Below are positions 2,002-54,900 of a DNA stretch of 64,000 bases, piece after piece. The notes beneath the pieces were generated by a model that was not told the origin of the DNA, made no database searches, and worked only from the letters and a program-made list of their open reading frames with translations. The stretch's first letter is position 1, and the number at the start of each line of letters is the position of its first letter. A program made the translations under genes and the position numbers. The DNA comes from an uncultured bacterium (GTDB lineage Bacteria > Hinthialibacterota > Hinthialibacteria > Hinthialibacterales > Hinthialibacteraceae), in the NCBI GenBank assembly GCA_964556895.1, contig CAZKYC010000001.1:29371-93370 (forward strand). Reading direction: 5' to 3'.

Positions 2002-2260
2002 AGGCTCATCCGGGATTTGGATACGTTCTTTCAAATTGAAATATAAATTTCCAGACACGATCTCAAGGATGATTTTTTTATCGTTGTATTTGGCATGGGT
2101 ACAACTCTGCTCGCTTCAGTGCGGCTCCGCCTTTTTGCACAGGCGCTCCCAGAGTTGCACCCATGCCCGAGTTGGATTGTCTATTATTGATAGGACAAAT
2201 ATCGTTTTTTGACCAAATTCCAGGTTATTCAGCATGGGAAGTACTCAAATATCGGAAGAA
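2002..2260 (+). mobile_element. MITE-like repeat family 1, copy 1a. Full length, with a conserved 66-nt core hairpin at 2097-2162.
   Basis: Flanked by a perfect 9-bp direct repeat GTTCATTTT (1993-2001 and 2261-2269). Imperfect terminal inverted repeat tccgggatttggatac / gtactcaaatatcgga. The core is gggtacaactctg...cagagttgcaccc, a 13-bp stem. Near-identical copies lie at 23124-23381 (reverse complement), 43874-44041 and 54484-54900. Confidence 0.75.
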
Positions 2261-4119: not shown

Positions 4120-4233
4120 ACGACCCCGCTTCAATATCTGAAATATCTATTCGTTTCATTTGAATCGATCTCAACACCATTTCGCTTGACAGAAATAACG
4201 ACCTGTCAAAAAAAGACCGGCCTAATTAGGCAT

Positions 4234-4302
4234 GGGTGTATCTCTGAGAGCGCCTGTGCTTTAAAGCCGCTGAAAATTACACTCACAAATCCAGATACAC
4301 CC
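4234..4302. repeat. Solo copy of the family-1 core hairpin, diverged. It overlaps the last codons of the gene at 4283-5356.
   Basis: ggcatgggtgtatctctgagagcgcctgtgc...cagatacaccc shares the 5' stem and the gagcgcctgtgc loop block with family 1. The 3' stem arm encodes the C-terminal residues VGVYLDL* of the minus-strand gene. Confidence 0.55.
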
Positions 4303-11134: not shown

Positions 11135-11785
11135 TCACATCGAGCGGATCAGGCCCACCACGATGCCCAACAGCGCAAAACTTTGGCCGTTGTCTGGGCC
11201 GCCCGCGTCGGGGATATGAATCGGGGCGTATGCCCGGTTGGCCGGTTCCAAAACCACTTCGTTTGATCCGCGTTTATACCGCTTCACCGTCGCTTCATCT
11301 TCTAACCGCGCCACCACGATGTCGCCGTTATTGGCGTTGTCTTGTTGGCGCACTACCACAATGTCGCCGTCATGAATGCCCGCTTCGACCATACTGTCGC
11401 CACTCACGCGCAAACCAAACAAATCAGGCTCAGCCGCGCGGTCGCCGAAAAACTGTGGGTCAACTGTCAACTCGTCTTCGCGAATGTCAGGCTCAGCCAG
11501 GCTAAACGGCCCGGCGGGCACCCGCCCCACAATCGGCATCTGATACGTCCGTCTGGGCGGCGGCGGCGCGGGGCGGTCGGTGCGGCGCATTCCTCGCGAC
11601 GTGTTTGACTGCACTTCGAGATGCCCCATTTTCTGAAGCCGCAACAGGTGATAGCGAGCGCCATTGGTCGACGCAATTTTGAAGCGCTTACAAATTTCCC
11701 GTAGGGTTGGGGGGTAACCGCTTTCGTCCATACTTTCGTCGATGAATGCCAGAATTTCTTTTTGCCGCTTGGTCAATTCTTTCAT
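11135..11785 (-). CDS. lexA: LexA repressor (S24 peptidase).
   Basis: N-terminal winged HTH (TKRQKEILAFI...GYPPTLREICKRF...LLRLQKMGHLE). C-terminal S24 domain with the catalytic Ser (VSGDSM) and Lys (VKRYKR). RBS GGAGAG lies 5 nt before the ATG of MKELTK; the track's M at 11797 is a TTG overlapping this RBS. Confidence 0.9.
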   Translation of the reverse strand: MKELTKRQKEILAFIDESMDESGYPPTLREICKRFKIASTNGARYHLLRLQKMGHLEVQSNTSRGMRRTDRPAPPPPRRTYQMPIVGRVPAGPFSLAEPDIREDELTVDPQFFGDRAAEPDLFGLRVSGDSMVEAGIHDGDIVVVRQQDNANNGDIVVARLEDEATVKRYKRGSNEVVLEPANRAYAPIHIPDAGGPDNGQSFALLGIVVGLIRSM

Positions 11786-11827
11786 GGCGCTCTCCAAATG
11801 AGTGCTATTTTGTTCAATATTATATGT

Positions 11828-11839
11828 GTACGGATGTTC
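11828..11839. promoter_or_regulatory. Candidate SOS (LexA) box, GTAC-N4-GTTC, in the lexA promoter region.
   Basis: Near-palindrome tGTACggatGTTCa about 43 bp upstream of the lexA start codon. It resembles Gram-positive/cyanobacterial GAAC-N4-GTTC and RGTAC-N3-DGTWC LexA boxes. lexA autoregulation is the rule. Confidence 0.35.
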
Positions 11840-11939
11840 ACTGTCAAGAAGGTGTTTTCACTTTTTGTAAGTTGAGTAGCCCCAGTGGCGCGGGGCCGTT
11901 CTCTCACCTATAGTACTGGCAGATGATATCGGTGCGGCC

Positions 11940-12755
11940 ATGAAACAGCGAATCAAACACATTCTATTTCACCGTCATTTGATCTATGAATTTCTCAAGC
12001 GCGACCTTCAGGCGCGCTACCTGGGCAGCGCCATCGGGTTTTTCTGGTCGGTGATCAATCCGCTCATTTTATTGGCGGTTTATGCGGTGGTGTTTGGCTA
12101 CATTCTCAAGGCGAAATATGACGCTCTCGGCTTTGGCGAGGCAGGCACAGTGGCGTTTGCGTTTTATATCTTCAGCGGGCTGATGCCGTGGTTCGCCTTT
12201 CAAGAGTCGCTGATGCGCACCACCACCAGCATCGTTGACAACGCCCATTTGATCAAACAAGTTCGTTTCCCCGCGAAGGTGTTGCCCGCCTATCTCACCA
12301 TCTCAAGCCTGATCAACCAATTGATCGGGACAAGTATCTTCATGGCCGGCTATCTGGCGTTTACCTCAAGCGCCCATCTTACTTGGTTGGCGCTGCCGCT
12401 GGTGTTGGCGGTTGAGTTTGTCATGTTTTTTGGGCTGGGGTTGTTCTTCTCAACGCTGCATACCTACATCCGCGACGTGGGCCCGCTAATCAGCATCATC
12501 ACCATGATTATGATGTGGACGACGCCCATGCTCTATACGCTTGAGATGGCCCAACAGGCGCCGCAGTGGGTGCAGTCGGTTCTCTACGCCAACCCGATCA
12601 CCTATTTGATTCTAATTCACCATGATTTGATGTTGAAAGGCGTGTGGCCCGCGTTATGGCTGTGGCTGGTATTTGGCGGGATATCGTTTGTCTCTTTGAT
12701 ATTGGGGTATTGGTTGTTCACACGCTGCCATAGCGAATTCGCCGACCTACTCTGA
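11940..12755 (+). CDS. ABC-2 type (Wzm/KpsM/TagG-like) polysaccharide-export permease.
   Basis: 271 aa with 6 TM segments. The N-terminus RDLQARYLGSAIGFFWSVINPLILLAVYAVVF is typical of ABC-2 permeases. No ATPase partner is adjacent. Confidence 0.7.
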   Translation: MKQRIKHILFHRHLIYEFLKRDLQARYLGSAIGFFWSVINPLILLAVYAVVFGYILKAKYDALGFGEAGTVAFAFYIFSGLMPWFAFQESLMRTTTSIVDNAHLIKQVRFPAKVLPAYLTISSLINQLIGTSIFMAGYLAFTSSAHLTWLALPLVLAVEFVMFFGLGLFFSTLHTYIRDVGPLISIITMIMMWTTPMLYTLEMAQQAPQWVQSVLYANPITYLILIHHDLMLKGVWPALWLWLVFGGISFVSLILGYWLFTRCHSEFADLL

Positions 12756-13463
12756 TTCACAGGTCGTGTTTTCAAATTCGACTTTCTTTATCCACTCTAA
12801 CACCGCATCCGCCAATACCGCATCAAGTCTTGACGCGCGCATCCCCATCTGGATCAGCAACGGCAGCCCCCACGGTCTTGATGCGATCACTTTGAGTGAA
12901 GCGCCAATGTTGGGAAAACCGTCTTGCCCGATACAGCGAATCGCCTCTTCAGAAACCACTTCATCCGCGCCGTCTGAGATGGCTTTGATCCATGCGAAGC
13001 GTTCCCCGCGAGCCTTGGCGTGAATGGCGACTGCGGCGGATTCCATGTCGACTAAGTCGGCGTTCAACCGCTGTCGAACATCGCGCTTACTTTCAGGGGT
13101 CAACAGTGGTGTATTGCTGCAATAGAGAAAATGTGATTGGTTTACGGTAAAGCCCACGGTGTTTCCATCATTTGTGATGACAGAGCCGCCTTGATAACAG
13201 GTCCCAACTTCGATCTCATCATGCAGTGCGCCCGCCGCGCCAAACGAAAGCCAATACGAAACCGGATCGCTGCCAAGCGACTCGAGTTGGGCCTGCATGC
13301 GCGTTCGTCCCACTCCAGAGGCGATGAGGGTCAACTGTGCGCCGCCATACGGGCTGACGGTATGCACAACAGTACGCTTTGGAGCCAGCGGGGCGGTCCC
13401 CAACCGCTTACAGAGCGCTCGCGTCTCCATCGGCATGGCCGCGCACAATACAATTCGGTCCAT
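12747..13463 (-). CDS. PNP_UDP_1 family nucleosidase, either an MTA/SAH nucleosidase or a futalosine hydrolase MqnB-like enzyme.
   Basis: IVLCAAMPMETRAL...LIASGVG...FGAAGAL...DMESAAVA fits the nucleoside phosphorylase/nucleosidase fold. The start is taken at the internal Met (MDRIV) to avoid a 41-nt overlap with the upstream gene; it is uncertain. Confidence 0.5.
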   Translation of the reverse strand: MDRIVLCAAMPMETRALCKRLGTAPLAPKRTVVHTVSPYGGAQLTLIASGVGRTRMQAQLESLGSDPVSYWLSFGAAGALHDEIEVGTCYQGGSVITNDGNTVGFTVNQSHFLYCSNTPLLTPESKRDVRQRLNADLVDMESAAVAIHAKARGERFAWIKAISDGADEVVSEEAIRCIGQDGFPNIGASLKVIASRPWGLPLLIQMGMRASRLDAVLADAVLEWIKKVEFENTTCESE

Positions 13464-17515: not shown

Positions 17516-17620
17516 ACAGGGGGGATCATTCGTTTTACCGCATCCGCCATCGCCCAAAACGCCGCCAAACTCTTCTGCTTCGGCGCCGCGGTAAAGTTGA
17601 GGAAGTTGGAGCAAGAGCAA

Positions 17621-18364
17621 TTACCCTTTCACCGCTGCCGCCGCTTCTTCGATAGTGAATTTTTTTTCATAAAGCGCCTTGCCGACGATGACGCCGCTGA
17701 TTGAGCCTTGCTCAAGCGAGTGGGCGAGTTTGACCACATTGCGAATGTCATCCAGCGAGCCGATTCCGCCCGAAGCGATTATCGGGAACGTAGACGCCGC
17801 CGCCATATCTTTCAGTTGCTCAAGATTGGGGCCGACCAGCGTGCCGTCGCGCGCAATGTCAGTGTAAATCACCGCGCAATACTCCAAGCCGTCAAATTCT
17901 TTCACCAGGTCAACCGCCTTCACCTGGCTGGTCTCGCGCCAGCCGCGGGTGGCGACCAACCCATCGCGGGCGTCGATGCCGAGAATGATGCGCCCCGGGT
18001 AGGCCTGGGCCGCTTCGCGGGCGAAGCCGGGCTTTTCTAACAACACACTGCCGAGAATGGCGCGGACCACACCCAGTTCGCCCAACACGCGGTGGACAGC
18101 CTCCATATCGCGCAAGCCGCCGCCCAGTTCGGTCGGGACCGACAGCGTCTCAACAATGGCGCGGATGGCGTCGCGGTTTTGCATGGCGCCGTCGCGGGCG
18201 CCGTCGAGGTCGACGATGTGGACAATATCGCCGCCGCCGTCCTGCCAGGTTTTGGCGAACTCAGCAGGGGTATTAGAATAAACCGTCTCTTGGTCATACT
18301 CGCCGCGCAACAAACGTACTGCATTGCCGCCGCGTAAATCAATGGCGGGAATCAAATCAATCAC
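17621..18364 (-). CDS. hisA: Phosphoribosylformimino-5-aminoimidazole carboxamide ribotide isomerase (HisA/PriA family).
   Basis: VIDLIPAIDLRGGNAVRL...DIVHIVDLDGA...(beta/alpha)8 barrel motifs. Probable GTG start at 18364 preceded by GGAGGA. It overlaps the plsY stop in a GTGA arrangement. Confidence 0.85.
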   Translation of the reverse strand: MIDLIPAIDLRGGNAVRLLRGEYDQETVYSNTPAEFAKTWQDGGGDIVHIVDLDGARDGAMQNRDAIRAIVETLSVPTELGGGLRDMEAVHRVLGELGVVRAILGSVLLEKPGFAREAAQAYPGRIILGIDARDGLVATRGWRETSQVKAVDLVKEFDGLEYCAVIYTDIARDGTLVGPNLEQLKDMAAASTFPIIASGGIGSLDDIRNVVKLAHSLEQGSISGVIVGKALYEKKFTIEEAAAAVKG

Positions 18365-18993
18365 GAAGGCTCCTCCGTCTTGGGTTGGCCAATGCGCGGT
18401 TCCGTCCCCGCCCACAGGCGCAGAATGTTGGTTTTGTGTTTAATGATTACCATTGTTGCCGCGATGGTTGCGAAGATGGCGACTTCGACCGAAGGCGCAT
18501 ACTCGTTCTTCATCCAAAGAGCGACAAAGATGCAGCCAACCAGAATCACCGCCCCGCTAATCGAGGCGATCGACATATACCGCGTAGTGAACAAGATGAT
18601 GAGAAACAGGGTAAACGTAATCGCGAATGGAACCGGCGTCAGCGCAGCAAATACGCCCGCTGATGCGGCGACTCCCTTTCCGCCGCCTTTGAAGCCGAGA
18701 AAGATGGTCCAGTTGTGGCCCAGAATCGCGACCAGCCCGGCAGCAATCGCCAGCCATTCGACGTTTGGAACTAGCATCCGTGCGATAATCACCGCCGCCG
18801 CGCCCTTGCCGATGTCGAAAGCGAAAACCGGCAGGCTCATCCACAGGCCAAGAACGCGCCAGGCGTTGGTGAAGCCCAGGTTGCCGCTGCCGACCGTGCG
18901 CAGGTCAACGCCTTTGGCCCACTTGCCCATGTAATAGGCGGACGGGATCGAGCCGAGTAAGTAGGCGATGATGAGAGCAAGCGCGTCGTTCAT
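18361..18993 (-). CDS. plsY: Glycerol-3-phosphate acyltransferase PlsY.
   Basis: 210 aa. MNDALALIIAYLLGSIPSAYY...GSGNLGFTNAWRVLG is the characteristic PlsY N-terminus, followed by 5 TM helices. Confidence 0.9.
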   Translation of the reverse strand: MNDALALIIAYLLGSIPSAYYMGKWAKGVDLRTVGSGNLGFTNAWRVLGLWMSLPVFAFDIGKGAAAVIIARMLVPNVEWLAIAAGLVAILGHNWTIFLGFKGGGKGVAASAGVFAALTPVPFAITFTLFLIILFTTRYMSIASISGAVILVGCIFVALWMKNEYAPSVEVAIFATIAATMVIIKHKTNILRLWAGTEPRIGQPKTEEPS

Positions 18994-20324
18994 TCCTGGT
19001 TCTTTTCCCGCTTGCGAAAATACAACCGCAGCGGCACCCCCTCCAACTGAAAGTGTTGATAGAGTTGGTTCATCAAATAGCGCTCATACGAAAAGTGAAT
19101 CGCGCTGGGGTCGTTGACAAAGGCGAGAAAAGTCGGCGGCGCCGTACTCACCTGGGTCGAATAATACAACCGCGCCGGGCGCCCGTGATGTGACGGGGGC
19201 GGGTTTTGTGCGATGATGCGCTCCATCAGTTGGTTCAGCAAACTCGTCGACGCGCGAAACTGGTAGTTGGCGAGAATCTGCTCGACTTTGGGAAAAATAC
19301 GATGCAAGCGCTGTTTGGTCATGGCTGAGATAAATTCTAAAGGGGCGTATTGTAAAAACGGCAGGTCTTCGCGAATTTTCTTGGCAAACTCGCCCGCGCT
19401 TTTTTCGGTTTTGTTATCGATGGCGTCCCATTTGTTGACGAGAATCATCGCGGCTTTCCCCGTATCTTTGGCGAGGCGAAACACTTTGGCGTCGGTCTCG
19501 GTCAGCCCTTCAACCCCATCGATGACCAATAGCGCTAGGTCGCACCGTTCGAGCGCTTTTTCATTTCGTTTGAGGGCGTATCGTTCTAGCCCCTGGTTCA
19601 TCTTGCCGCGGCGGCGGATGCCTGCGGTGTCGATCAATAAATATTTTTTTTCATTGACTTCGACAATTTCATCAACCGGGTCGCGGGTGGTGCCGCCGAT
19701 GGGCGAGACAATGGCGCGTTCGCTGCCGCAGAGCGAGTTCAGTAAGGTTGACTTACCCACATTGGGCCGCCCCAGAATAGCGATGCCGGGCGGATCGTCT
19801 TCAAACTGCGCCTCGTTTTCAGGAATGCGATTGACAATCTCATCTAACAGGTCGCCTACGCCCAGGCCATGAGTTGATGAGACAGGCAAAAACGCGTCAG
19901 CGCCCAATTCAAAAAACGAGGCCATCACTTCGTTTTCGGTTTTGGGATTATCGACCTTATTGATCGCGCACAAAATCGGTTTGTGAGAACGCCGCAATAA
20001 ATTGAAAATCTCGTGATCCAGAGGTGTGGGGCCGTCGCGCCCGTCTAAAACAAAGACAATCAACACACATGCCTGAACCGCCCGTTCAATTTGGTTTTGA
20101 ATCGCCTTTGAAAACGGGTCTTCGTCCGGCCCGAAAATTCCGCCGGTGTCAACCAACTCAAATGGCTTTCCGTTCCAGTCGGTTGGCCGGTATTTCAGGT
20201 CGCGGGTAACGCCCGGCTGATCGTCAACAATCGCGTCGCGGCTGCCGATGATTCGGTTAAACAGCGTCGACTTGCCCACGTTGGGGCGTCCGACAATTGC
20301 GACCAGAGGTGGTTTTTTGGGCAT
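18990..20324 (-). CDS. der: Ribosome-biogenesis GTPase Der (EngA), with two GTPase domains.
   Basis: Two tandem G domains, each with G1 GRPNVGKST, a DTAG/DTGG motif and NKVD/NKWD, plus a KH-like C-terminus. ATGA overlap with plsY. Confidence 0.95.
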   Translation of the reverse strand: MPKKPPLVAIVGRPNVGKSTLFNRIIGSRDAIVDDQPGVTRDLKYRPTDWNGKPFELVDTGGIFGPDEDPFSKAIQNQIERAVQACVLIVFVLDGRDGPTPLDHEIFNLLRRSHKPILCAINKVDNPKTENEVMASFFELGADAFLPVSSTHGLGVGDLLDEIVNRIPENEAQFEDDPPGIAILGRPNVGKSTLLNSLCGSERAIVSPIGGTTRDPVDEIVEVNEKKYLLIDTAGIRRRGKMNQGLERYALKRNEKALERCDLALLVIDGVEGLTETDAKVFRLAKDTGKAAMILVNKWDAIDNKTEKSAGEFAKKIREDLPFLQYAPLEFISAMTKQRLHRIFPKVEQILANYQFRASTSLLNQLMERIIAQNPPPSHHGRPARLYYSTQVSTAPPTFLAFVNDPSAIHFSYERYLMNQLYQHFQLEGVPLRLYFRKREKNQE

Positions 20325-20612
20325 GCGCCTTACTCTTTCATTGAGACATAACCCGTAAGCTTGACTACGCCTCTCGTTTGTATATCAAGGCGTTTTCGTA
20401 AATAGCAATCAAGGCGCCTCGGCCTATCGAACGAAAAAACATCCTGATAGAATGCCATACTCGATTGGTTATTTGTCTGGACCTTACAGAAATGTCTTTT
20501 CCTGACCTTGTGATCAAAAATCAACATTGATTTTTAAACGATTGCGCTGCCGCCATGAATCCTACATTTTTGTAAGTACATAGGAATCAATCAATTGAGA
20601 TTGTTTGAGTTA

Positions 20613-20628
20613 TTGGCATGGCTTCTGC
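20613..20628 (+). promoter_or_regulatory. Candidate sigma-54 promoter for glnA, TGGCAT-N5-CTGCT (-24 GG and -12 GC).
   Basis: The GG at 20614-20615 and the GC at 20626-20627 are separated by exactly 10 nt. The site lies in a long AT-rich leader about 270 nt upstream of the glnA ATG. glnA is commonly NtrC/sigma-54 controlled. Confidence 0.35.
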
Positions 20629-20896
20629 TTCTATTTTTTGAAATTCAGCCAATTCTCGCGGTCTAATTGGATTGTAACCGGTAAGTTGATAGGTTGAGAG
20701 TCTAACGCAATATATCTGAGAATGGTATCTATTACCCGATCAGTGTTTGACAATGACCGAACCAATAACGTACCCACTGCAAGAGCCTTTCTTCATATTG
20801 ATTACATCCGGTTGAGGGCCGGAACACGGATTCACGCAATCGGCGCAAGCCGAACCAAGTATTCTATATCTCAACATTAGTAAGGAGAGCGGACAT

Positions 20897-22306
20897 ATGA
20901 CTCCAAAAGAAGTTATCACAATGATCAAAGAAAAAGGCATCCAATTTGTTGACTTTAAGTTCCAGGACCTTCCCGGCACTTGGCAACACACCAGCATTCC
21001 TTCTAACCATTTAGAAGAAGATTCTTTTGAAGATGGTTTTGGGTTTGATGGTTCATCGATTCGCGGCTGGAAGGCGATCAACGAGAGCGACATGTTGATT
21101 TTGCCTGACCCGACAACAGCGTTTGTTGATCCATTCATGCAGTACCCGACATTATCATTGACTTGTTCGATCCTCGACCCAATCACAAAAGAGCGTTACA
21201 CCCGCGACCCACGCAATGTTGCGTTTAAATGTGAAGAATACGTTAAATCAACCGGAATCGCAGACTCGATTTTTATCGGCCCTGAAGCGGAGTTTTTCTT
21301 GTTTGACAGCGTCCGTTATGGTCAAGAAGCCAACTTCGGCATGTTTGAAATCGATTCGCAAGAAGCGATTTGGAACTCGGCCAACGGCGATTCCAGCCTA
21401 GGCCACTTGGTGCGTCACAAAGAGGGGTACTTCCCCTGCGCGCCAGTCGATACGCTTCAAGACATTCGTTCAGAAATGGTCGCAACCATGATCGAACTTG
21501 GCATTAACGTCGAAGCCCTTCACCACGAAGTGGCGACCGCCGGCCAATGTGAAATCGACATGCGCTTTGCGCCGCTGTTAAAGATGGGCGACGACTTGAT
21601 GCTATACAAATATGTCGTCAAGAATGTCGCGAAAAAACATGGCAAGACAGCGACCTTTATGCCGAAGCCGATCTTTGGCGATAACGGCTCGGGTATGCAC
21701 GTTCACTCCAGCCTCTGGAAAGGCGATAAGCCTCTCTTCGCGGGCGATAAATACGCCGGGCTGTCTCAAGAGTGTTTGTGGTATATCGGCGGTATCTTAA
21801 AACACGCCAACGCCCTGATCGCGCTCACCAACCCGACCACCAACTCATTCAAACGTTTGGTTCCGGGTTATGAAGCGCCGGTCAACCTGGCTTACTCACA
21901 ACGCAACCGTTCTGCGGCCTGCCGTATCCCGATGTACTCGCCCAGCCCCAAAGCCAAACGGGTTGAGTTCCGTTGCCCCGACCCATCGTGCAACGGCTAC
22001 TTTGCCTTCTCAGCGATTGTCATGGCTGGCCTAGATGGAATCTTGAACAAGATTGATCCAGGCGATCCGCTCGACAAAAACATTTATGACTTGTCGCCGG
22101 AAGAAGCGGCTGGCGTTCCTCAAGTTCCCGGTTCATTGGGCGACGCACTCGACGCCTTAGAAAAAGACCACGACTTCTTGACCCATGGCGACGTCTTCAC
22201 TTCAGACTTAATCGAAACATGGATCGGCTATAAGCGCGAAAACGAAGTTGAACCCAACCAGTTGCGCCCGACTCCATACGAATTCTTCCTCTACTACGAT
22301 TGCTAA
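20897..22306 (+). CDS. glnA: Glutamine synthetase type I.
   Basis: 469 aa with GS-I signatures throughout (FKFQDLPG, the ATP-binding [35 protein letters not shown]). RBS AAGGAGAG. Confidence 0.95.
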
Positions 22307-22332
22307 GCAATTGTTGCAGATCGAAAACCAAA

Positions 22333-22365
22333 AGGCCGGGCGAATCGCCCGGCCTTTTTCGTTTT
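22333..22365 (+). terminator. Rho-independent terminator after glnA.
   Basis: aggccgggcg-aatc-gcccggcct followed by TTTTT. Confidence 0.85.
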
Positions 22366-22550: not shown

Positions 22551-23069
22551 ATGAGAAAGAGAAGCCAAGCGTTCACACTGATTGAACTGTTAATCGTCGT
22601 CGCCATTATTGGCATCCTGGCGGCGATTGCCGTCCCCAACTTTTTACAGGCCCAAGTCCGCGCCAAGGTGGCCCAGATGCAGGGAACATTTAAAACCATG
22701 GTGACCGCGCTTGAGACCTATCGCATTGACAATGGCGCGCCGCCCGTCCATTACAATGACCCCAAACAAAACGCTTGGATGACAACCCCCATCGCGTATG
22801 CGTCGACCCGGCCCTATGACATTTTTCAAGACTTTAACACTGGCGTTTCGAGATTAGGCTGGCATGACTATGGCCGTAAAGAACGCTATGGCTGCCCCCA
22901 CTATGAGACCGGCAGGCAAAACACCGAGTATTGGATCGTCGGCATCGGCCCCGACCAGATTTGGCAGACCTTCAGTACTGACGCCAAGACCTACGACATT
23001 ACAAATGGAGTGATGAGCCAGGGCGACATGTATGTTGTCGAATCGTCGCTGACCTACATTTTTCACTAA
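22551..23069 (+). CDS. Prepilin-type (type II secretion GspG-like) pseudopilin paralog.
   Basis: Prepilin leader and cleavage/methylation motif MRKRSQA|FTLIELLIVVAIIGILAAIAVPNF. The C-terminal part carries a GIGPDQ motif resembling the GspG S.GPDG signature. Confidence 0.8.
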   Translation: MRKRSQAFTLIELLIVVAIIGILAAIAVPNFLQAQVRAKVAQMQGTFKTMVTALETYRIDNGAPPVHYNDPKQNAWMTTPIAYASTRPYDIFQDFNTGVSRLGWHDYGRKERYGCPHYETGRQNTEYWIVGIGPDQIWQTFSTDAKTYDITNGVMSQGDMYVVESSLTYIFH

Positions 23070-23123: not shown

Positions 23124-23381
23124 TTCTTCCGATATTTGAGTACTTCCCTTGCTGGATGACCTGGAATTTGGTCAAAAAACGATATTCATCCTATCAATAC
23201 TAGACAATCCTCCTCAGGCAAGGGTGCAACTCTGTGAGCGCCTGTGCAACAAAGCGGAGCGGCGCCGAAGCGAGTAGAGTTGTACCCATGCCAAATACAG
23301 CGATAAAAAAATCATCCTTGAAATGGTGTCTAAAAAAATTAATTCAATTTAAGAGAACGTATCCAAATCCCTGATGAGCCT
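23124..23381 (-). mobile_element. MITE-like repeat family 1, copy 1b. Full length, reverse orientation, core hairpin at 23222-23287.
   Basis: About 90% identical to copy 1a along all 258 bp. Flanked by similar 9-mers CAAATAAGG (23115-23123) and CAAATAACC (23382-23390), which I read as a roughly 7-bp target-site duplication CAAATAA. Confidence 0.75.
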
Positions 23382-23543
23382 CAAATAACCTTCAGCGGTG
23401 GGCGAACCCATCCTGCGGTGTTCCCCAGATAAATTTTCCCCGCACTCGTCGTTTTTCTGATCTCATACTATTCTACTACTGAACGAAAACATACCGCCTA
23501 ATGGCGCCAATCTTGTTACTGCTTACTGTAAATTCATAGGCTG

Positions 23544-24173
23544 ATGAAAGATCAACAAATGACAAAAATGAAATCAGGTTTTACCTTAATTGAATTGTTA
23601 ATTGTCGTCGCCATTATTGGCGTCCTCGCGGCCATCGCCGTGCCCAACTTTCTGAATGCGCAGATTCGCGCCAAGGTGGCGGCGGCCCAAAGCGACATGC
23701 GCGCGCTCGGAACCGCGCTCGAAATGTATTCACTCGACAACAACGCCTACCCGCCCTTTCGCCATGACATCAACGGCGAGTGGCGCTATAAGGGCGCGCT
23801 GGCGCGGCTGACCTCGCCAGTGTCATACATGAACACCATCCCCAACAGCGACCCATTTAATTCAGAGGCGCCATCGGCGTATGGCGGCGCAACCGACGAC
23901 GCCAATTATGGGTATACCTATGTCGATTACAAATCATTTTCGCCCAATAACTATTGGCCGTTGTGGGCCAAGCCGCTCAACATTCTGTGGGTGCTCTATA
24001 GTTTTGGCCCTGACCGCAACGATGACGTGGGCGTGGTGGCGATTGGTAAAGTGATCGGCCCGAATTTTGACATTCCCACATGGAACCCAAACCGGGTTCC
24101 CTATTCGTCATCAAATGGAATCATCTCCAACGGCGACCTCATGCGCTCCAACCACGGCGATCACAGTAAGTAG
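23544..24173 (+). CDS. Prepilin-type (GspG-like) pseudopilin paralog.
   Basis: MKSG|FTLIELLIVVAIIGVLAAIAVPNF prepilin motif. C-terminal SFGPDRNDD motif. 209 aa. Confidence 0.8.
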   Translation: MKDQQMTKMKSGFTLIELLIVVAIIGVLAAIAVPNFLNAQIRAKVAAAQSDMRALGTALEMYSLDNNAYPPFRHDINGEWRYKGALARLTSPVSYMNTIPNSDPFNSEAPSAYGGATDDANYGYTYVDYKSFSPNNYWPLWAKPLNILWVLYSFGPDRNDDVGVVAIGKVIGPNFDIPTWNPNRVPYSSSNGIISNGDLMRSNHGDHSK

Positions 24174-24298
24174 AAGTCAAGGAATTCTAAAAAAAAAAGA
24201 TAAAAAGATTGAAAAAACTAACCCACTAGATTCCTTCCTGTTCATTTACGCGTTATGTGTCTATAATTGCACAACTTGTTATATCAGCGGGGATCAAC

Positions 24299-24847
24299 GT
24301 GTCAAAAAAGAAAAACGGCTTTTGGGAAAGCCTTCGAGCGAACTATGATGAGATGCGAATCGTGTTTGTCTTTGAACATCTCCAAGAACAAGGATTTGAT
24401 TTAGACCAAATACTCCAATCAAATAATGTCTCAGACCGCATTCCACTCTTAAAAGCCTTCAAAGAATTTGAAAAACAAAAGCCTTGGTCAGATTTTGTTT
24501 TTGATAATGATGAGATATGTTATTTATTAGCGAGAATAGTAGATTATAGAGGAGTGTGTAGATTTCTTTATGATTTAGAAGACAAAAGTGTGTTAGAGCC
24601 AGATTTTAAACTTCATGAACATTCCGAAAAATATGATGACGAGAACGAGAACGACAAGTTACAGTTGCAAACAGACATAGAAAATGCTAAGAATTCTGTG
24701 AGTATTTTGTTGAAATACGAAATAATTGTAAAGAATGGAAGAAAATTTTCGTTAACTAAAGAAGGTAGAGAATCGTTTGTTAATGTACAGTATGAGAGAA
24801 TTGAAAAAAACGCAGTTCTTTCATATTGGAGGCCAAAGAAAGGATAA
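24299..24847 (+). CDS. Hypothetical acidic protein in the AT-rich islet. No recognisable domain.
   Basis: The ORF stays open from 24257. Candidate starts are the GTG at 24299, preceded by GGGGA, or the ATG at 24353. A TATAAT lies at about 24261. Composition is markedly AT-rich relative to the flanks. The C-terminal 40 aa (ILLKYEIIVKNGRKFSLTKEGRESF) loosely resemble a winged helix. Confidence 0.45.
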   Translation: MSKKKNGFWESLRANYDEMRIVFVFEHLQEQGFDLDQILQSNNVSDRIPLLKAFKEFEKQKPWSDFVFDNDEICYLLARIVDYRGVCRFLYDLEDKSVLEPDFKLHEHSEKYDDENENDKLQLQTDIENAKNSVSILLKYEIIVKNGRKFSLTKEGRESFVNVQYERIEKNAVLSYWRPKKG

Positions 24848-24852
24848 GAGCC

Positions 24853-25134
24853 ATGACAAATATCAGTCCTGATCGAATGATTGACGCTTATGGTCAGCTC
24901 ATTGAAGAAGATCCAAATTTGGTCGAATTTTTTTCCCGAATCAATGAAAAGAATACAATAAGGATACGTGATCTTGCTGGCCCTTTTCAGGATTACTACA
25001 ATGCGTTGCGTGGGTTTGGTTTTCTAGAAGCAGAAACTGACCATCTTAGCCGCGACACAAAAATAGTATTTGCTGAAACGGGGAAAAAGTTTTGGGAAAA
25101 ATACGGATCTAAAATCGAAGAGTTGCGTAACTAG
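24853..25134 (+). CDS. Hypothetical 93-aa protein in the AT-rich islet, translationally coupled to the upstream ORF.
   Basis: AAAGGA lies 8 nt before the ATG of MTNISPD. It overlaps or abuts the preceding ORF. No recognisable motif. Confidence 0.45.
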   Translation: MTNISPDRMIDAYGQLIEEDPNLVEFFSRINEKNTIRIRDLAGPFQDYYNALRGFGFLEAETDHLSRDTKIVFAETGKKFWEKYGSKIEELRN

Positions 25135-25163
25135 GAATTCATCTATATTACGACTTCTTATAA

Positions 25164-25190
25164 AGGCTCCTCCAAATGGAGCCTTTTTGT
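25164..25190. terminator. Bidirectional Rho-independent terminator between convergent genes.
   Basis: ggctcc-tccaaa-tggagcc hairpin with an A-tract on its 5' side and TTTTT on its 3' side. It lies between the 3' ends of 24853-25134 (+) and 25204-25806 (-). Confidence 0.7.
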
Positions 25191-25203
25191 ATTCTATATT
25201 CTA

Positions 25204-25806
25204 TCAATACGGCATGATCACGCCCTCGTGAGAGGCGTAGATCTCACCATTTGACTCAACGCCGTTTGAGATGTGATAGACGTGTTTGATTGCTTGTGAT
25301 GGTGTGTACATCCACATCATGTCTTCATCTAAATCCGGCCCCATGCTACTCAAAGTAAACGCTTGAGCGCCTAAATTATATCTTTCTCTTATCGTATTTG
25401 AATATTCATACAATGGATGGATTTTTCGCCCGTAGTTCCATCTTTCTTTGATCGCTTTTACATAAAACACGTCTTCTGGAATAGATGAAATATACGCCGT
25501 AGGGGTTGTCAATAGGGTGTATGAGTAGATTTCCGTTTGAAATTGAGCGCCTTGCGTTCCTTTTTGCGAATTAAACGCAGGAGAAAGGCTACTGTGATTA
25601 CCATCAAAATCAGGCGGGGTGTCTTTGTAGTCGAGATAATAGGCGTTAATCGCGTCTGACAGTTTTCCTAAGTCGGTCACTGCTTGAGCGAGATCAGCGC
25701 GAATTTGCGCCTTGGAGAATTTTGGCAGCGACACCGCGAATAAAAGCCCCAACACAACTACGACAACAATGATCTCAGCAATGTGAATTCGGCGAAGCGA
25801 TTTCAT
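25204..25806 (-). CDS. GspG-like pseudopilin paralog with a degenerate prepilin cleavage motif.
   Basis: Same fold signature as its neighbours (hydrophobic N-helix, ...SMGPDLDED motif). The leader reads MKSLRR-IHIAEIIVVVVVLGLL and lacks the Gly(-1)-Phe(+1) pair; the +5 Glu is kept. Confidence 0.65.
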   Translation of the reverse strand: MKSLRRIHIAEIIVVVVVLGLLFAVSLPKFSKAQIRADLAQAVTDLGKLSDAINAYYLDYKDTPPDFDGNHSSLSPAFNSQKGTQGAQFQTEIYSYTLLTTPTAYISSIPEDVFYVKAIKERWNYGRKIHPLYEYSNTIRERYNLGAQAFTLSSMGPDLDEDMMWMYTPSQAIKHVYHISNGVESNGEIYASHEGVIMPY

Positions 25807-25885: not shown

Positions 25886-26461
25886 TCAGCCTTTTTTGGC
25901 CTCGAGCGCCCGGCGGGCTTGGGAGAGGTGGCGCGATTGGTGAACGAGCAACAATACGACCCATTGGCCCACACTGACCTTCAACCACGACGCGGCGGGG
26001 GACGGCATTTTGGTTTTGGACGGGTCTTTTCCTTTGAGGTTTGAAATCACTTCGATGAGGTCGCCCTGCCAGCGTTCAAACTCTTCGAGCATCGGGTTGG
26101 TCTCAAGCGCGGCTTGAGGGACATACAGCGAAGGCGCTTTGAATCGCACCTTGGGCCGCTGCTCGCTTCCACTGGCGAGGTAGACGAACATGCGCTCAAA
26201 CATCGAATAGTGATAGCGGTCGGGGCGCTTTGACTCGTCGGCCTTCATCGACTCGACCACCTCGCCAAGGTTGGGCAGCATCTTCGACGACACTTCGATC
26301 AAATGTTGAAAACATTCCGCCGCCGACCAGCCGCCGTCGCTGGGGTGGGCCTGCCATAACGACGCGTCAGACGACTCAACGATACGACGCGCTTCGGCGT
26401 TGAGACGCTTGGCTTCATCAATCAAACTTGGTATGTCATCATCAGAATTAAATTGGATCAT
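25886..26461 (-). CDS. DinB/YfiT-like (DinB_2 superfamily) four-helix-bundle protein.
   Basis: GGWSAAECFQHLIEV and downstream His residues match the DinB_2 metal-binding pattern. 191 aa. Confidence 0.45.
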   Translation of the reverse strand: MIQFNSDDDIPSLIDEAKRLNAEARRIVESSDASLWQAHPSDGGWSAAECFQHLIEVSSKMLPNLGEVVESMKADESKRPDRYHYSMFERMFVYLASGSEQRPKVRFKAPSLYVPQAALETNPMLEEFERWQGDLIEVISNLKGKDPSKTKMPSPAASWLKVSVGQWVVLLLVHQSRHLSQARRALEAKKG

Positions 26462-26504: not shown

Positions 26505-27611
26505 TTACCTCTTCATATTCGATTGGATCCACTGTTCACGAAACGCCTCAAAAGTTCCTTCGCGGATAGTGTGGCGGCATTTAGCCATGAACTGTTGAAA
26601 GAAGGTGATGTTGTGAAGCGAGGCCAGGCGGGAGGCGAGAATCTCGCCCGCCTGAAAGAGATGGCGCAGATAGGCGCGGCTGTAGTTTTGACAGCAATAA
26701 CAGCCGCAGTTCTCATCAATGGGCGCCTCGTCTTCACGAAACTTGGCTTGTTTTAGCGTGAGTTTTCCGCCCCAGGTGAGCAGGTGGCTGGTGCGCGCCA
26801 GCCGGGTCGGGACAACACAGTCAAACATATCCACGCCGCGATAAATCGCTTCGAGAAAATCTTCGGGCGTGCCCACGCCCATCAGATAGCGCGGCTTGTC
26901 TTTGGGCAGAATCTCATTCATGGCGTCACAGATCGCCCAGGTCTTTTCTTTGTCTTCACCGAGCATCAACCCGCCGATGGCGTACCCGGGGAAATCCAGT
27001 TGCAGCAGGTCGTTGGCGCTGCGCTCGCGCAGGTCTTGATAAACCCCGCCCTGGACGATGCCAAACAGCGCCTGGTCGTCGCGCTGGTGAGACTCGACGC
27101 AGCGCCGCGCCCAGTTGGTAGTAATCTGCACCGAGTTTCCAGCGTACTCACGAGTGGCGGGGTAGGGCGTGCATTCATCGAAGCACATAATAATGTCAGC
27201 GCCGAGGTCGTTTTCGAGTTTCATCACGCGTTCGGGGGTGAAGCGGTGTTGGGCGCCGTCGATGTGCGAGCGAAACGAAACCCCGTCATCGTCGATCTTG
27301 CGCAGCGACGCCAAGCTGTAGACCTGAAAGCCGCCGCTGTCAGTGAGGATGGGGCCGCCCCAATTCATGAACGAATGCAGCCCGCCCATCTTGGCGACGA
27401 TGTCCTGCCCGGGGCGCATGTAGAGGTGGTAAGCATTACAGAGCAATATCTGAGAGCCTGTCTCAGCGACCTCTTCGGGCGTGAGCGACTTCACGGTGGC
27501 GTTGGTGCCGACTGGCATGAATGCTGGCGTGTCGAACGGGCCGTGAGGCGTGGTGACTGTCCCCACCCGCGCTCTTTGGTCAGATTGGTGAATTTCAAAT
27601 GAAAGAGACAT
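26505..27611 (-). CDS. tgt: Queuine tRNA-ribosyltransferase (tRNA-guanine transglycosylase).
   Basis: GTVTTPHGPFDTPAFMPVGT, LLCNAYHL, the catalytic Asp region, and the Zn site CGCYCCQNYSRAYLRHL. Confidence 0.9.
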   Translation of the reverse strand: MSLSFEIHQSDQRARVGTVTTPHGPFDTPAFMPVGTNATVKSLTPEEVAETGSQILLCNAYHLYMRPGQDIVAKMGGLHSFMNWGGPILTDSGGFQVYSLASLRKIDDDGVSFRSHIDGAQHRFTPERVMKLENDLGADIIMCFDECTPYPATREYAGNSVQITTNWARRCVESHQRDDQALFGIVQGGVYQDLRERSANDLLQLDFPGYAIGGLMLGEDKEKTWAICDAMNEILPKDKPRYLMGVGTPEDFLEAIYRGVDMFDCVVPTRLARTSHLLTWGGKLTLKQAKFREDEAPIDENCGCYCCQNYSRAYLRHLFQAGEILASRLASLHNITFFQQFMAKCRHTIREGTFEAFREQWIQSNMKR

Positions 27612-27854
27612 AGCAACGTATTGTAGGGCGGGAAAAGATTTTCAGAATATGCGCGCTTCGCCGACTGAACAACAACGGGCATCTGGCCGGGTGGGCCAAG
27701 TGAACGCCCCCGCAAGTTCCAAGTGCTAACCCTCCTTACAAACGTATGAACTCTTTGAGAAACTTGGGCCTTGCGTAGAACGCTCTCGATGTCGATCCAT
27801 GCCCTTGTCCTTTTGTTCGCGGTTGAATGTAAATCCCCATATGGCCCGTAAACT

Positions 27855-28067
27855 CTATTTGGGGGGTATATCTACTGGGTCCCAGTAATTTTCTTCTATG
27901 AAGCCGGAACCGACTAGACTTCTACAGAAGGCAGGATGCTCAGTAAGCATTGCCTGAAGAAATGACTGCATTCGAGTCGCATCTTCTGGAAACTCTTCAC
28001 ATCCGGCCCATTCGTCCATTACCCTTTTTGCAATGGCAGCAGCCCAATCTTCAATAGGTTTGTTCAT
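27855..28067 (-). CDS. Small 70-aa hypothetical protein co-transcribed with the HNH endonuclease, overlapping it by 17 nt.
   Basis: Lies in the low-GC islet. It starts inside the 3' end of the HNH gene. No recognisable motif (MNKPIEDWAAAIAKRVMDEWAGCEEFPED...). Confidence 0.45.
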   Translation of the reverse strand: MNKPIEDWAAAIAKRVMDEWAGCEEFPEDATRMQSFLQAMLTEHPAFCRSLVGSGFIEENYWDPVDIPPK

Positions 28068-28653
28068 ATTGCTTCCTAACTTGCTTCAGTAGATACTCCC
28101 GAATGGGGTTTGTTTCTTCTGGTCGGGCAAAGTGGGCCATCTTATGGTGATGGGCGCACAAGACAGCGAGATTCCAAAGACCATCCTCTCCACCCAAGTA
28201 AAGAGGAATAATATGGTGAACTTCGATATATCTTTCACCGTCCGGCTTGATGAAGGTATTTTCGCAGCTGTCCATTAGGCATCGTGAACCAAGAAATTCT
28301 TTTGCCCTACTTGCCCACTGTGTTTTACGGACATAAGACTCAACAAGATACTCCTTGCGTTCAGGCGTTTCTCCAGAGATATCAAGCGTGTGTGTTTCAT
28401 CCAGTTCACTGTCCAGCCATTCAACACCCCTTAGCGTATAGCAACCGGACTTATCAAGGAATGATAGAAAGCCCTCGTCACGAAGTTCCTGTAGGAGTCG
28501 TCGAACCGTTGCCTGTGGTGTTTGTCCCCCGATACCAATGGCTTCATAATTGCCGTGTGTTTCATTGATTTGCTTGAGCGTGAAGGTTCGTGAACCTTGC
28601 CGATTGCAGAATTCCAGTACCAGGCTTTTCAATCTATCTCTTTGCCCTATCAT
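28051..28653 (-). CDS. HNH (His-Me finger) endonuclease with an N-terminal winged-helix-like domain.
   Basis: C-terminal HNH module CLMDSCEN...EVHHIIPLYLGGEDGLWNLAVLCAHHHKMAH. The N-terminal roughly 110 aa is a wH-like DNA-binding region. Low G+C relative to the flanks. RBS GGGGA. Confidence 0.8.
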   Translation of the reverse strand: MIGQRDRLKSLVLEFCNRQGSRTFTLKQINETHGNYEAIGIGGQTPQATVRRLLQELRDEGFLSFLDKSGCYTLRGVEWLDSELDETHTLDISGETPERKEYLVESYVRKTQWASRAKEFLGSRCLMDSCENTFIKPDGERYIEVHHIIPLYLGGEDGLWNLAVLCAHHHKMAHFARPEETNPIREYLLKQVRKQYEQTY

Positions 28654-43767: not shown

Positions 43768-43873
43768 TTTCGTGGAGTTGACCATAGTGGTTTTTATCTT
43801 AAATAGACTGTATGTGGTGATGGGGTGAGAACCCACCCTTCATTTGCTCTCTTCTTGATTTACACCCAGTGTG

Positions 43874-44041
43874 GCATGGGTACAACTCTACTCGCTTCAG
43901 TGCGGCTCCGCCTTTTTGCACAGGCGCTCACAGAGTTGCACCCATGCCTGAGTTGGATTGTCTATTATTGAAAGGACGAATATCGTTTTTTGACCCAATT
44001 CCAGGTCATCCATCAAGGGAAATACTCAAATTTCGGATGAA
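43874..44041 (+). mobile_element. MITE-like repeat family 1, copy 1c. It is 5'-truncated: it has the core hairpin at 43878-43943 and the right arm but no left arm.
   Basis: It aligns with copy 1a from ggcatggg through aatttcggatgaa. Confidence 0.7.
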
Positions 44042-54483: not shown

Positions 54484-54900
54484 AATCCAGAAACCATGTC
54501 AAAACACAGCAACCTAATATCGGCTTGGGTGCAACTCTGGAAGCGCCTGTGCAAAAGGGCCTGAAAGCCCGCACTGAAGCGAGCAGAGATGTACCCAAGC
54601 CAGACACAGCAAAATCTCAATTCAATATACGGAAAAAACCTAAAATGAATGACCCCGCCCCAAAGGGCGAGGAATTAAACCCGAATTAGATAAAATCCAG
54701 AAACCATGTCAAAAACACAGCAACCTAATATCGGCTTGGGTGCAACTCTGTGAGCGCCTGTGCAAAAGGGCCTGAAAGCCCGCACTGAAGCGAGCAGAGT
54801 TGTACCCAAGCCAAATACAACGATAAAAAAATCATCCTTGAGATCGTGTCTGGAAATTTTAATTCAATTTGAGAGAACGTATCCAAATCCCGGATGAGCC
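54484..54900 (-). mobile_element. MITE-like repeat family 1, tandem pair. D1 is a partial copy with its core at 54527-54596. D2 has its core at 54738-54807 plus the full left arm. Both are in reverse orientation.
   Basis: The block aaaatccagaaaccatgtcaaaa(a)cacagcaacctaatatcggcttgggtgcaactctg occurs twice, 208 bp apart. The left arm at 54808-54900 matches the left arm of copy 1a at about 90%. The right arm belongs to a different subtype (aagccgatattaggttgctgtgtttttgacatgg...). Confidence 0.7.

Follow-up and report, generated by a model that had tools for sequence, protein, structure and literature searches.

A horizontally acquired, AT-rich two-gene cassette encoding a predicted winged-helix protein between convergent pseudopilin genes of a Candidatus Hinthialibacter-like bacterium

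The subject of this analysis was an AT-rich segment of about 1 kb lying within a 64,000-nucleotide stretch of DNA (the window) from an uncultured bacterium. A sequence-only reading had described the segment as a low-G+C insert of two genes between GspG-like pseudopilin paralogs, and both the composition and the flanks were confirmed. The segment at 24180-25200 has a G+C content (GC) of 0.349 compared to a mean of 0.534 for the 64-kb window (standard deviation of 0.043 for 1-kb windows), and the region 24174-25203 was found to be the lowest-GC kilobase in it. The GC at third codon positions (GC3) was 0.30 for the first open reading frame (ORF1) and 0.35 for the second (ORF2), compared to 0.655 +/- 0.064 for ORFs of >=200 amino acids (aa) in the window and 0.67-0.72 for the neighbouring genes tgt, dinB, and pil209. 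The AT-rich, lineage-specific DNA (24174-25203, plus strand; GC 0.35) spans the whole interval between the stop codons of pil209 and pil200 and is a self-contained two-gene cassette comprising an A-tract and TATAAT, ORF1, ORF2, and a terminator. The host is a Candidatus Hinthialibacter-like bacterium, in which the cassette occupies a promoter-free gap where two pseudopilin genes converge. The left flank, pil209 (23544-24173, plus strand), is a GspG-like pseudopilin gene with N_methyl and T2SSG matches, and its orthologs in close relatives are 87-90% identical. The right flank, pil200 (25204-25806, minus strand), is pseudopilin-like and matched the GspG profile TIGR01710 with an expectation value (E) of 4.6e-10, which is under the family cut-off. 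The gene order in the window is tgt, dinB, pil200, [ORF2, ORF1], pil209, pil172, glnA, der, with ORF1 and ORF2 co-directional with the pseudopilin genes pil172 and pil209.

ORF1 (24299-24847, plus strand) has a GTG start and encodes a protein of 182 aa with an isoelectric point (pI) of 5.4, identical to the NCBI-annotated protein P0001. ORF2 (24853-25134, plus strand) has an ATG start and encodes a predicted winged-helix protein of 93 aa with a pI of 5.0. The stop codon of ORF1 and the start codon of ORF2 are separated by 5 nucleotides (nt), and AAGGA is present within the 3' end of ORF1. The two ORFs had been described as overlapping or translationally coupled. Their adjacency was upheld and they are possibly coupled, but an overlap is obtained only with the use of an upstream TTG at 24826.

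The A-run and the TATAAT that were said to open the segment are both present, the former at 24189-24207 and the latter at 24262-24267 (both on the plus strand). The A-run, read directly from the sequence, begins a series of phased A-tracts, A10-GAT-A5-GAT-TG-A6 (24189-24217, plus strand), which lie 5' of the putative promoter and possibly serve as an UP-element or as bent DNA. The TATAAT is a -10-like hexamer located 32 nt 5' of the ORF1 start with a weak -35 element (TGTTCA) at 24239-24244; no sigma-70 promoter was called at this hexamer by a consensus scan. At the other end of the cassette, an intrinsic terminator hairpin with a 9-bp stem (25162-25186, plus strand) consists of AAAGGCTCC-N7-GGAGCCTTT followed by TTGTATTCT, with a folding energy of -15.3 kcal/mol and a z of -4.2 relative to shuffles. 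The same hairpin lies 18 nt 3' of the pil200 stop codon on the minus strand. The claim that this terminator is bidirectional was borne out for the plus strand, where the U-tract is good, and only in part for the minus strand, where it is weak. An 8-nt direct repeat, AGGAATTC, brackets ORF1 and ORF2, the left copy being at 24180-24187 and the right copy, which overlaps the ORF2 stop codon, at 25133-25140. Controls gave a shared 8-mer of this kind at rates of 1.6% (shuffles) and 2.6% (random window pairs), and the repeat as a bracket of the two genes is suggestive only.

Homologs were sought by an exhaustive HMMER search over 1.84 billion cluster representatives. Only two were obtained for ORF1, namely, P0003 (180 aa; full-length match, E 8e-14) and P0004 (181 aa; E 4e-6). 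Each is encoded on a short Logan contig (L083 or L084) and is directly followed on its 3' side by a homolog of ORF2 (97 or 101 aa and 51% or 41% identical to ORF2), the gap between the two genes being 27 or 14 nt. Since both other ORF1 homologs have an ORF2 homolog as the next gene 3', the pair was deduced to be conserved as a pair. ORF1 and ORF2 are genuine protein genes, and the tight two-gene operon that had been claimed is kept in every one of the three known loci. The modules are without exception AT-rich (GC 0.30-0.39), and ORF2 is better conserved than ORF1 (41-51% versus 24-30% identity). The sequence-only reading had asked whether homologs are always paired and whether they reside on phages. 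The first was found to be so in both other loci; the second was not, as IMG/VR, JGI metagenome contigs, INPHARED phages, and PLSDB plasmids contained no relatives of the pair. The k-mer protein searches returned only the query proteins and the two Logan homologs. The pair constitutes a new family that is extremely rare (three loci among ~15 billion proteins), and in kind it is a familiar thing, a small orphan accessory operon with a (predicted) winged-helix protein.

The two Logan contigs, which are 1.2 kb and 1.9 kb long and derive from the runs SRR22388047 and SRR22388331, had features of their own. The L083 module has flanks of higher GC, and at the transition to them it is enclosed by the arms of a perfect 11-nt inverted repeat, CTTGCCACCCG / CGGGTGGCAAG (54-64 and 1167-1177), which may represent the element ends; no counterpart of this repeat was seen in the window. 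On L084, an ORF located 3' of the homologous pair (1320-1847) contains an in-frame TAG (AWHEFILFTG*YRLFCQ), which could reflect a pseudogene, a sequencing error, or stop-codon reassignment. The C-terminal tail of this ORF is rich in Cys, Gly, and Ser and arises from 12-nt tandem repeats, and the ORF has a putative motif of glycine-rich-domain proteins.

The locus was compared to those of close relatives found via the 90%-identity Tgt cluster of the window Tgt and the Candidatus Hinthialibacter antarcticus Tgt. This organism belongs to the phylum Ca. Hinthialibacterota, formerly OLB16 (PMC9324843). Three close relatives were compared: relative A (L088-L090), relative B (L092 and L093), and Ca. 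H. antarcticus (L087). In relative A, tgt is followed by 470 bp, the pil209 ortholog (90% aa identity), glnA, and der, and the order is the same in relative B except that the spacer is 64 bp and the pil209 ortholog is 87% identical. In Ca. H. antarcticus, tgt is followed by dinB and then by unrelated genes. The cassette is not present in any of the three, despite identities of ~90% for Tgt and ~92% for GlnA. By blastn, the window was 81-87% identical in DNA to relatives A and B over 17527-22358, 23500-24173, and 26527-27652, and the homology was found to break exactly at the pil209 stop codon (24173).

The right boundary was deduced from a remnant of pil200 in relative A. Directly after tgt (L088, 11105-11170), this genome retains 66 nt of pil200 that read MKTLRRIHWVEIIIAGVILPY up to the stop codon, corresponding to an in-frame fusion of the first and last codons of the gene, with 30/39 nt matching pil200 in the 5' part and 20/22 nt in the 3' part. 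Because this remnant survives in relative A, pil200 must have been present in the common ancestor of relative A and the window organism, and because the 3' end of pil200 from 25203 onward matches the remnant, the right boundary of the cassette is fixed. At the position of the cassette, relative A has ~400 bp of GC-normal DNA that includes a copy of a ~100-nt palindromic repeat. Since the relatives are without the cassette and homology stops at the flanking stop codon, the cassette is lineage specific and fills 24174-25203. An empty site in the same species was sought by exact look-ups of the flanking pilin genes, and these returned only the same arrangement from two samples (SRR7048221 and SRR7048222), in which the DNA of the cassette locus is 100% identical. 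With respect to signatures of mobility, no tRNA was found in the window and no integrase, transposase, or recombinase-size ORF adjoins the cassette; an Rfam scan of the window gave nothing, and nothing was obtained by searching the literature for the SRA runs.

The horizontal acquisition put forward by the sequence-only reading is thus borne out by the GC and GC3 values, by the three relatives without the cassette, and by the break at the pil209 stop codon. The conclusion that the cassette was acquired horizontally and inserted between pseudopilin paralogs is well supported, and the cassette provides a clean, well-bounded example of a tiny acquired cassette in a convergent intergenic gap. The same data bear on the proposal that ORF1 and ORF2 are native to the locus and regulate the pseudopilin genes beside them. 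The position of the pair between pseudopilin genes and its co-orientation with pil172 and pil209 would fit such a role. However, the relatives keep the pil209 ortholog without the pair, the composition of the pair is foreign, and no pilin gene is present in the short flanking DNA of the L083 and L084 pairs, and this proposal was judged to be extremely unlikely.

The two proteins had been said to have no recognisable structural motif. This held for ORF1, which matched nothing reliably, but not for ORF2, for which a winged helix was predicted with confidence. The single-sequence structure prediction of ORF2 gave a predicted local distance difference test (pLDDT) score of 90.3 and a predicted template modelling (pTM) score of 0.80, with the topology a1-a2-(b)-a3-aR-b1-b2-a5. 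Foldseek searches of this model against the PDB returned MarR-family and SmtB repressors at template modelling scores of ~0.55-0.63, and ArsR and TubR matches were also obtained. The model therefore identifies ORF2 as a small winged-helix protein of the ArsR/TubR size class. In the model it has the winged helix-turn-helix (HTH) fold with flanking dimerisation helices of ArsR/SmtB or MarR, and it is this predicted fold that it shares with those repressors. It differs from them in having no match to an HTH family in Pfam or NCBIfam (HTH_5, HTH_20, MarR, and others were not matched by any of the three ORF2 homologs), no Cys, and no metal-site motif, and in having a very short helix a3 and a net acidic recognition helix and wing. 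Comparisons of ORF2 with each half of ORF1, made to look for paralogy, gave no significant similarity.

Another reading is that of a relic of mobile-element DNA-handling genes, in which ORF2 would be a TubR/AspA-like centromere- or operator-binding winged-helix protein and ORF1 its DNA-binding or adaptor partner, the two having been left by, or captured from, a plasmid or phage and having no addiction activity. The predicted size class of ORF2 is that of TubR, the centromere-binding protein of the type III TubZRC plasmid partition system. The identity to TubR is 11%, however; neither a tubZ GTPase nor tubC iterons were found at the locus, and, unlike TubZRC, the cassette is chromosomal with no plasmid context. 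An origin of this kind was considered doubtful.

ORF1 was less tractable. Its family has invariant residues that include W63, G85, C87, P101, E107, N116, N118, Q122, K131, and a C-terminal WRP. The single-sequence AlphaFold2 (AF2) model of ORF1 had a pLDDT of 52 and was mostly helical with one hairpin, and its Foldseek matches were meaningless. Family scans of both proteins and all members gave scattered sub-threshold matches only (DUF5460, HTH_45, phrog_37124, Wmk, and rad10).

The last of these matches relates to a lead in which ORF1 would be a catalytically dead, ERCC1/Rad10-like DNA-binding protein of the XPF-nuclease fold that works with the winged-helix ORF2. When the A2 profile was searched against the PDB, the top match was the central domain of ERCC1 (E 0.14), and P0004 matched TIGR00597 (rad10) with an E of 0.003. 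The hhalign comparison of A2 to human ERCC1 gave a probability of 51% and an E of 1.5e-4 over 81 columns, with a score of 29 compared to 12 +/- 2.3 for 300 shuffles (~7 standard deviations above). Against this, TIGR00597 was matched by only one of the three members, at 17.4 bits compared to a cut-off of 72.9, and the ERCC1 match falls to an E of ~0.1-2 once corrected for the size of the PDB. Yeast Rad10 (32% identical to ERCC1) scored at background, and its addition lowered the profile to a probability of 21%. The XPF nuclease domain gave nothing, and the AF2 model, which is of low confidence, is helical at the positions of the ERCC1 strands. We consider this assignment unlikely. Membership of ORF1 in ERCC1/Rad10 yielded no above-threshold match, and the lead was left unconfirmed.

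The site of insertion was also informative. L003 comes from a relative that is less close (Tgt 75% identical), and its tgt-glnA gap contains a candidate defence system, HEC-01 (11261-12980), consisting of an AAA_21 ATPase and a DUF4276 protein with PADLOC E values of 6.5e-138 and 1.6e-60, respectively. HicB, ParD, HEPN_AbiU2, and Xre-RES genes are found within a few kb in relatives. The tgt-glnA interval is a hotspot of accessory and defence cargo, and the gap constitutes a synteny breakpoint at which this cargo differs among relatives. Since the synteny with the relatives stops at 27652, tgt has lineage-specific DNA on both sides.

On the other side of tgt, ~3 kb from the cassette, is a type IV restriction-like HNH gene (27855-28653, minus strand). 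The encoded HNH endonuclease carries a DpnI_C-like winged helix at its N terminus and matched PADLOC mREase_IV with an E of 2.8e-8. The gene is overlapped by a 70-aa ORF, and the GC3 of the two is low (0.43 and 0.39).

Because of the defence-cargo context of the site and the tight, conserved pairing of the two genes, we hypothesized that the cassette is a selfish accessory element that belongs with toxin-antitoxin, abortive-infection, or defence modules and that the winged-helix protein keeps its larger partner under control. The probability of this reading is estimated at roughly one in three. ORF1 and ORF2 would form a complex in which ORF1, the partner that evolves faster, is controlled or neutralised by the better-conserved ORF2, the latter probably acting as a dimer. 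ORF2 would probably also repress the promoter of the cassette, and the module would be kept by addiction or episodic selection rather than by a housekeeping role. As in type II toxin-antitoxin systems, two small adjacent genes are conserved as a pair (5-nt gap; 3/3 loci). Similarity to the HigBA, HicAB, and MqsRA systems, in which the DNA-binding partner is encoded downstream, extends to the two small, co-directional, nearly abutting genes and to horizontal mobility, residence in a variable region, and a putative promoter and terminator of its own. The cassette differs from those systems in that its proteins belong to no known toxin or antitoxin family, neither partner having such a match in Pfam, NCBIfam, or PADLOC, and in that ORF1 exceeds typical toxins in size and is less basic. 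If an addiction, defence, or anti-defence activity is true of the cassette, it would be a new small system from the barely studied candidate phylum Hinthialibacterota and would employ a winged-helix protein in an unusual acidic form.

Several observations weigh against the hypothesis of a toxin-antitoxin, abortive-infection, or defence module. No toxin, antitoxin, defence, or phage profile in Pfam, NCBIfam, PHROGs, or PADLOC was matched by ORF1 or ORF2, and PADLOC-DB v2 contained no family at E <= 1 for either protein. As a toxin, ORF1 would be large, and its pI varies across the family (5.4, 6.8, and 8.6). It gave weak, inconsistent matches to HTH_45, Csa3, and Sso10a, so that, on sequence grounds, it may itself have HTH-like segments or a winged-helix-like C terminus. 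In alignment A1, no Lys or Arg is invariant in either the putative recognition helix of ORF2 (x-YNAL-x-x-F) or the wing, and both segments carry a net negative charge in 3/3 homologs. DNA binding and autorepression by ORF2 are therefore not assured. Comparison of the upstream regions of all three loci gave no clear common operator palindrome or iterons. Finally, the family has three members, all but one on contigs of <2 kb, which makes association statistics impossible.

The acidic recognition helix relates to a further proposal, namely, that the cassette is a new, rare two-protein mobile module (toxin-antitoxin/defence or anti-defence) in which the acidic ArsR/TubR-like ORF2 would act by protein-protein contact rather than by classical operator binding, its partner having either a new fold or a degenerate ERCC1-like nuclease fold. 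This was regarded as improbable.

The unequal conservation of the two genes was also considered in terms of an anti-defence operon of the anti-CRISPR (Acr)/anti-CRISPR-associated (Aca) type, in which a host defence system would be inhibited by the rapidly evolving ORF1, with ORF2 as the conserved HTH autorepressor of a strong promoter. As in Acr-Aca operons, a variable, orphan upstream gene (24-30% identity) precedes a more conserved downstream HTH-type gene (here the winged-helix gene; 41-51%) behind a strong-looking promoter, with A-tract, TATAAT, and strong terminator all present. ORF1 of the window is acidic, with an EKYDDENENDK stretch, and the family is orphan-like. The acidity is not kept, however, as the homologs have pI values of 6.8 and 8.6, and the ORF1 position is taken by homologs in all three loci, with no swapping of the gene. 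The cassette also lies outside any recognisable prophage or plasmid, the phage, plasmid, and viral collections hold no homologs, and a chromosomal anti-defence gene without a surrounding mobile element has no obvious beneficiary. In addition, the known Aca families are mostly of the Xre-type HTH rather than the ArsR-like winged helix. An Acr-Aca operon was accordingly judged to be quite improbable.

The remaining observations concern the genes and repeats around the cassette. The flanking gene pil200 (25204-25806) has a degenerate prepilin signal (RRIHIAEII) without the Gly at position -1, and its GC3 is intermediate (0.46). The pseudopilin gene pil172 (22551-23069) and the 470-bp spacer that follows it are not present in relatives A and B, where glnA directly precedes the pil209 ortholog. 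As its GC is normal, pil172 seems to have been gained locally as a paralog and not to be of foreign origin. The DinB_2 gene by tgt (25886-26461) is also present in Ca. H. antarcticus (L087, 11147-11722) with 52% aa identity and with a 5' half that is conserved in DNA, and it is not found in relatives A and B. The ~100-nt, imperfectly palindromic intergenic repeat, which is similar to repetitive extragenic palindromes or miniature inverted-repeat transposable elements (REP/MITE-like), is present in the L088 spacer of relative A and in the window at 54491-54608, 54701-54840, 2064-2167 (minus strand), 23222-23320, 43872-43948 (minus strand), and 4204-4259, the copies being 81-95% identical.
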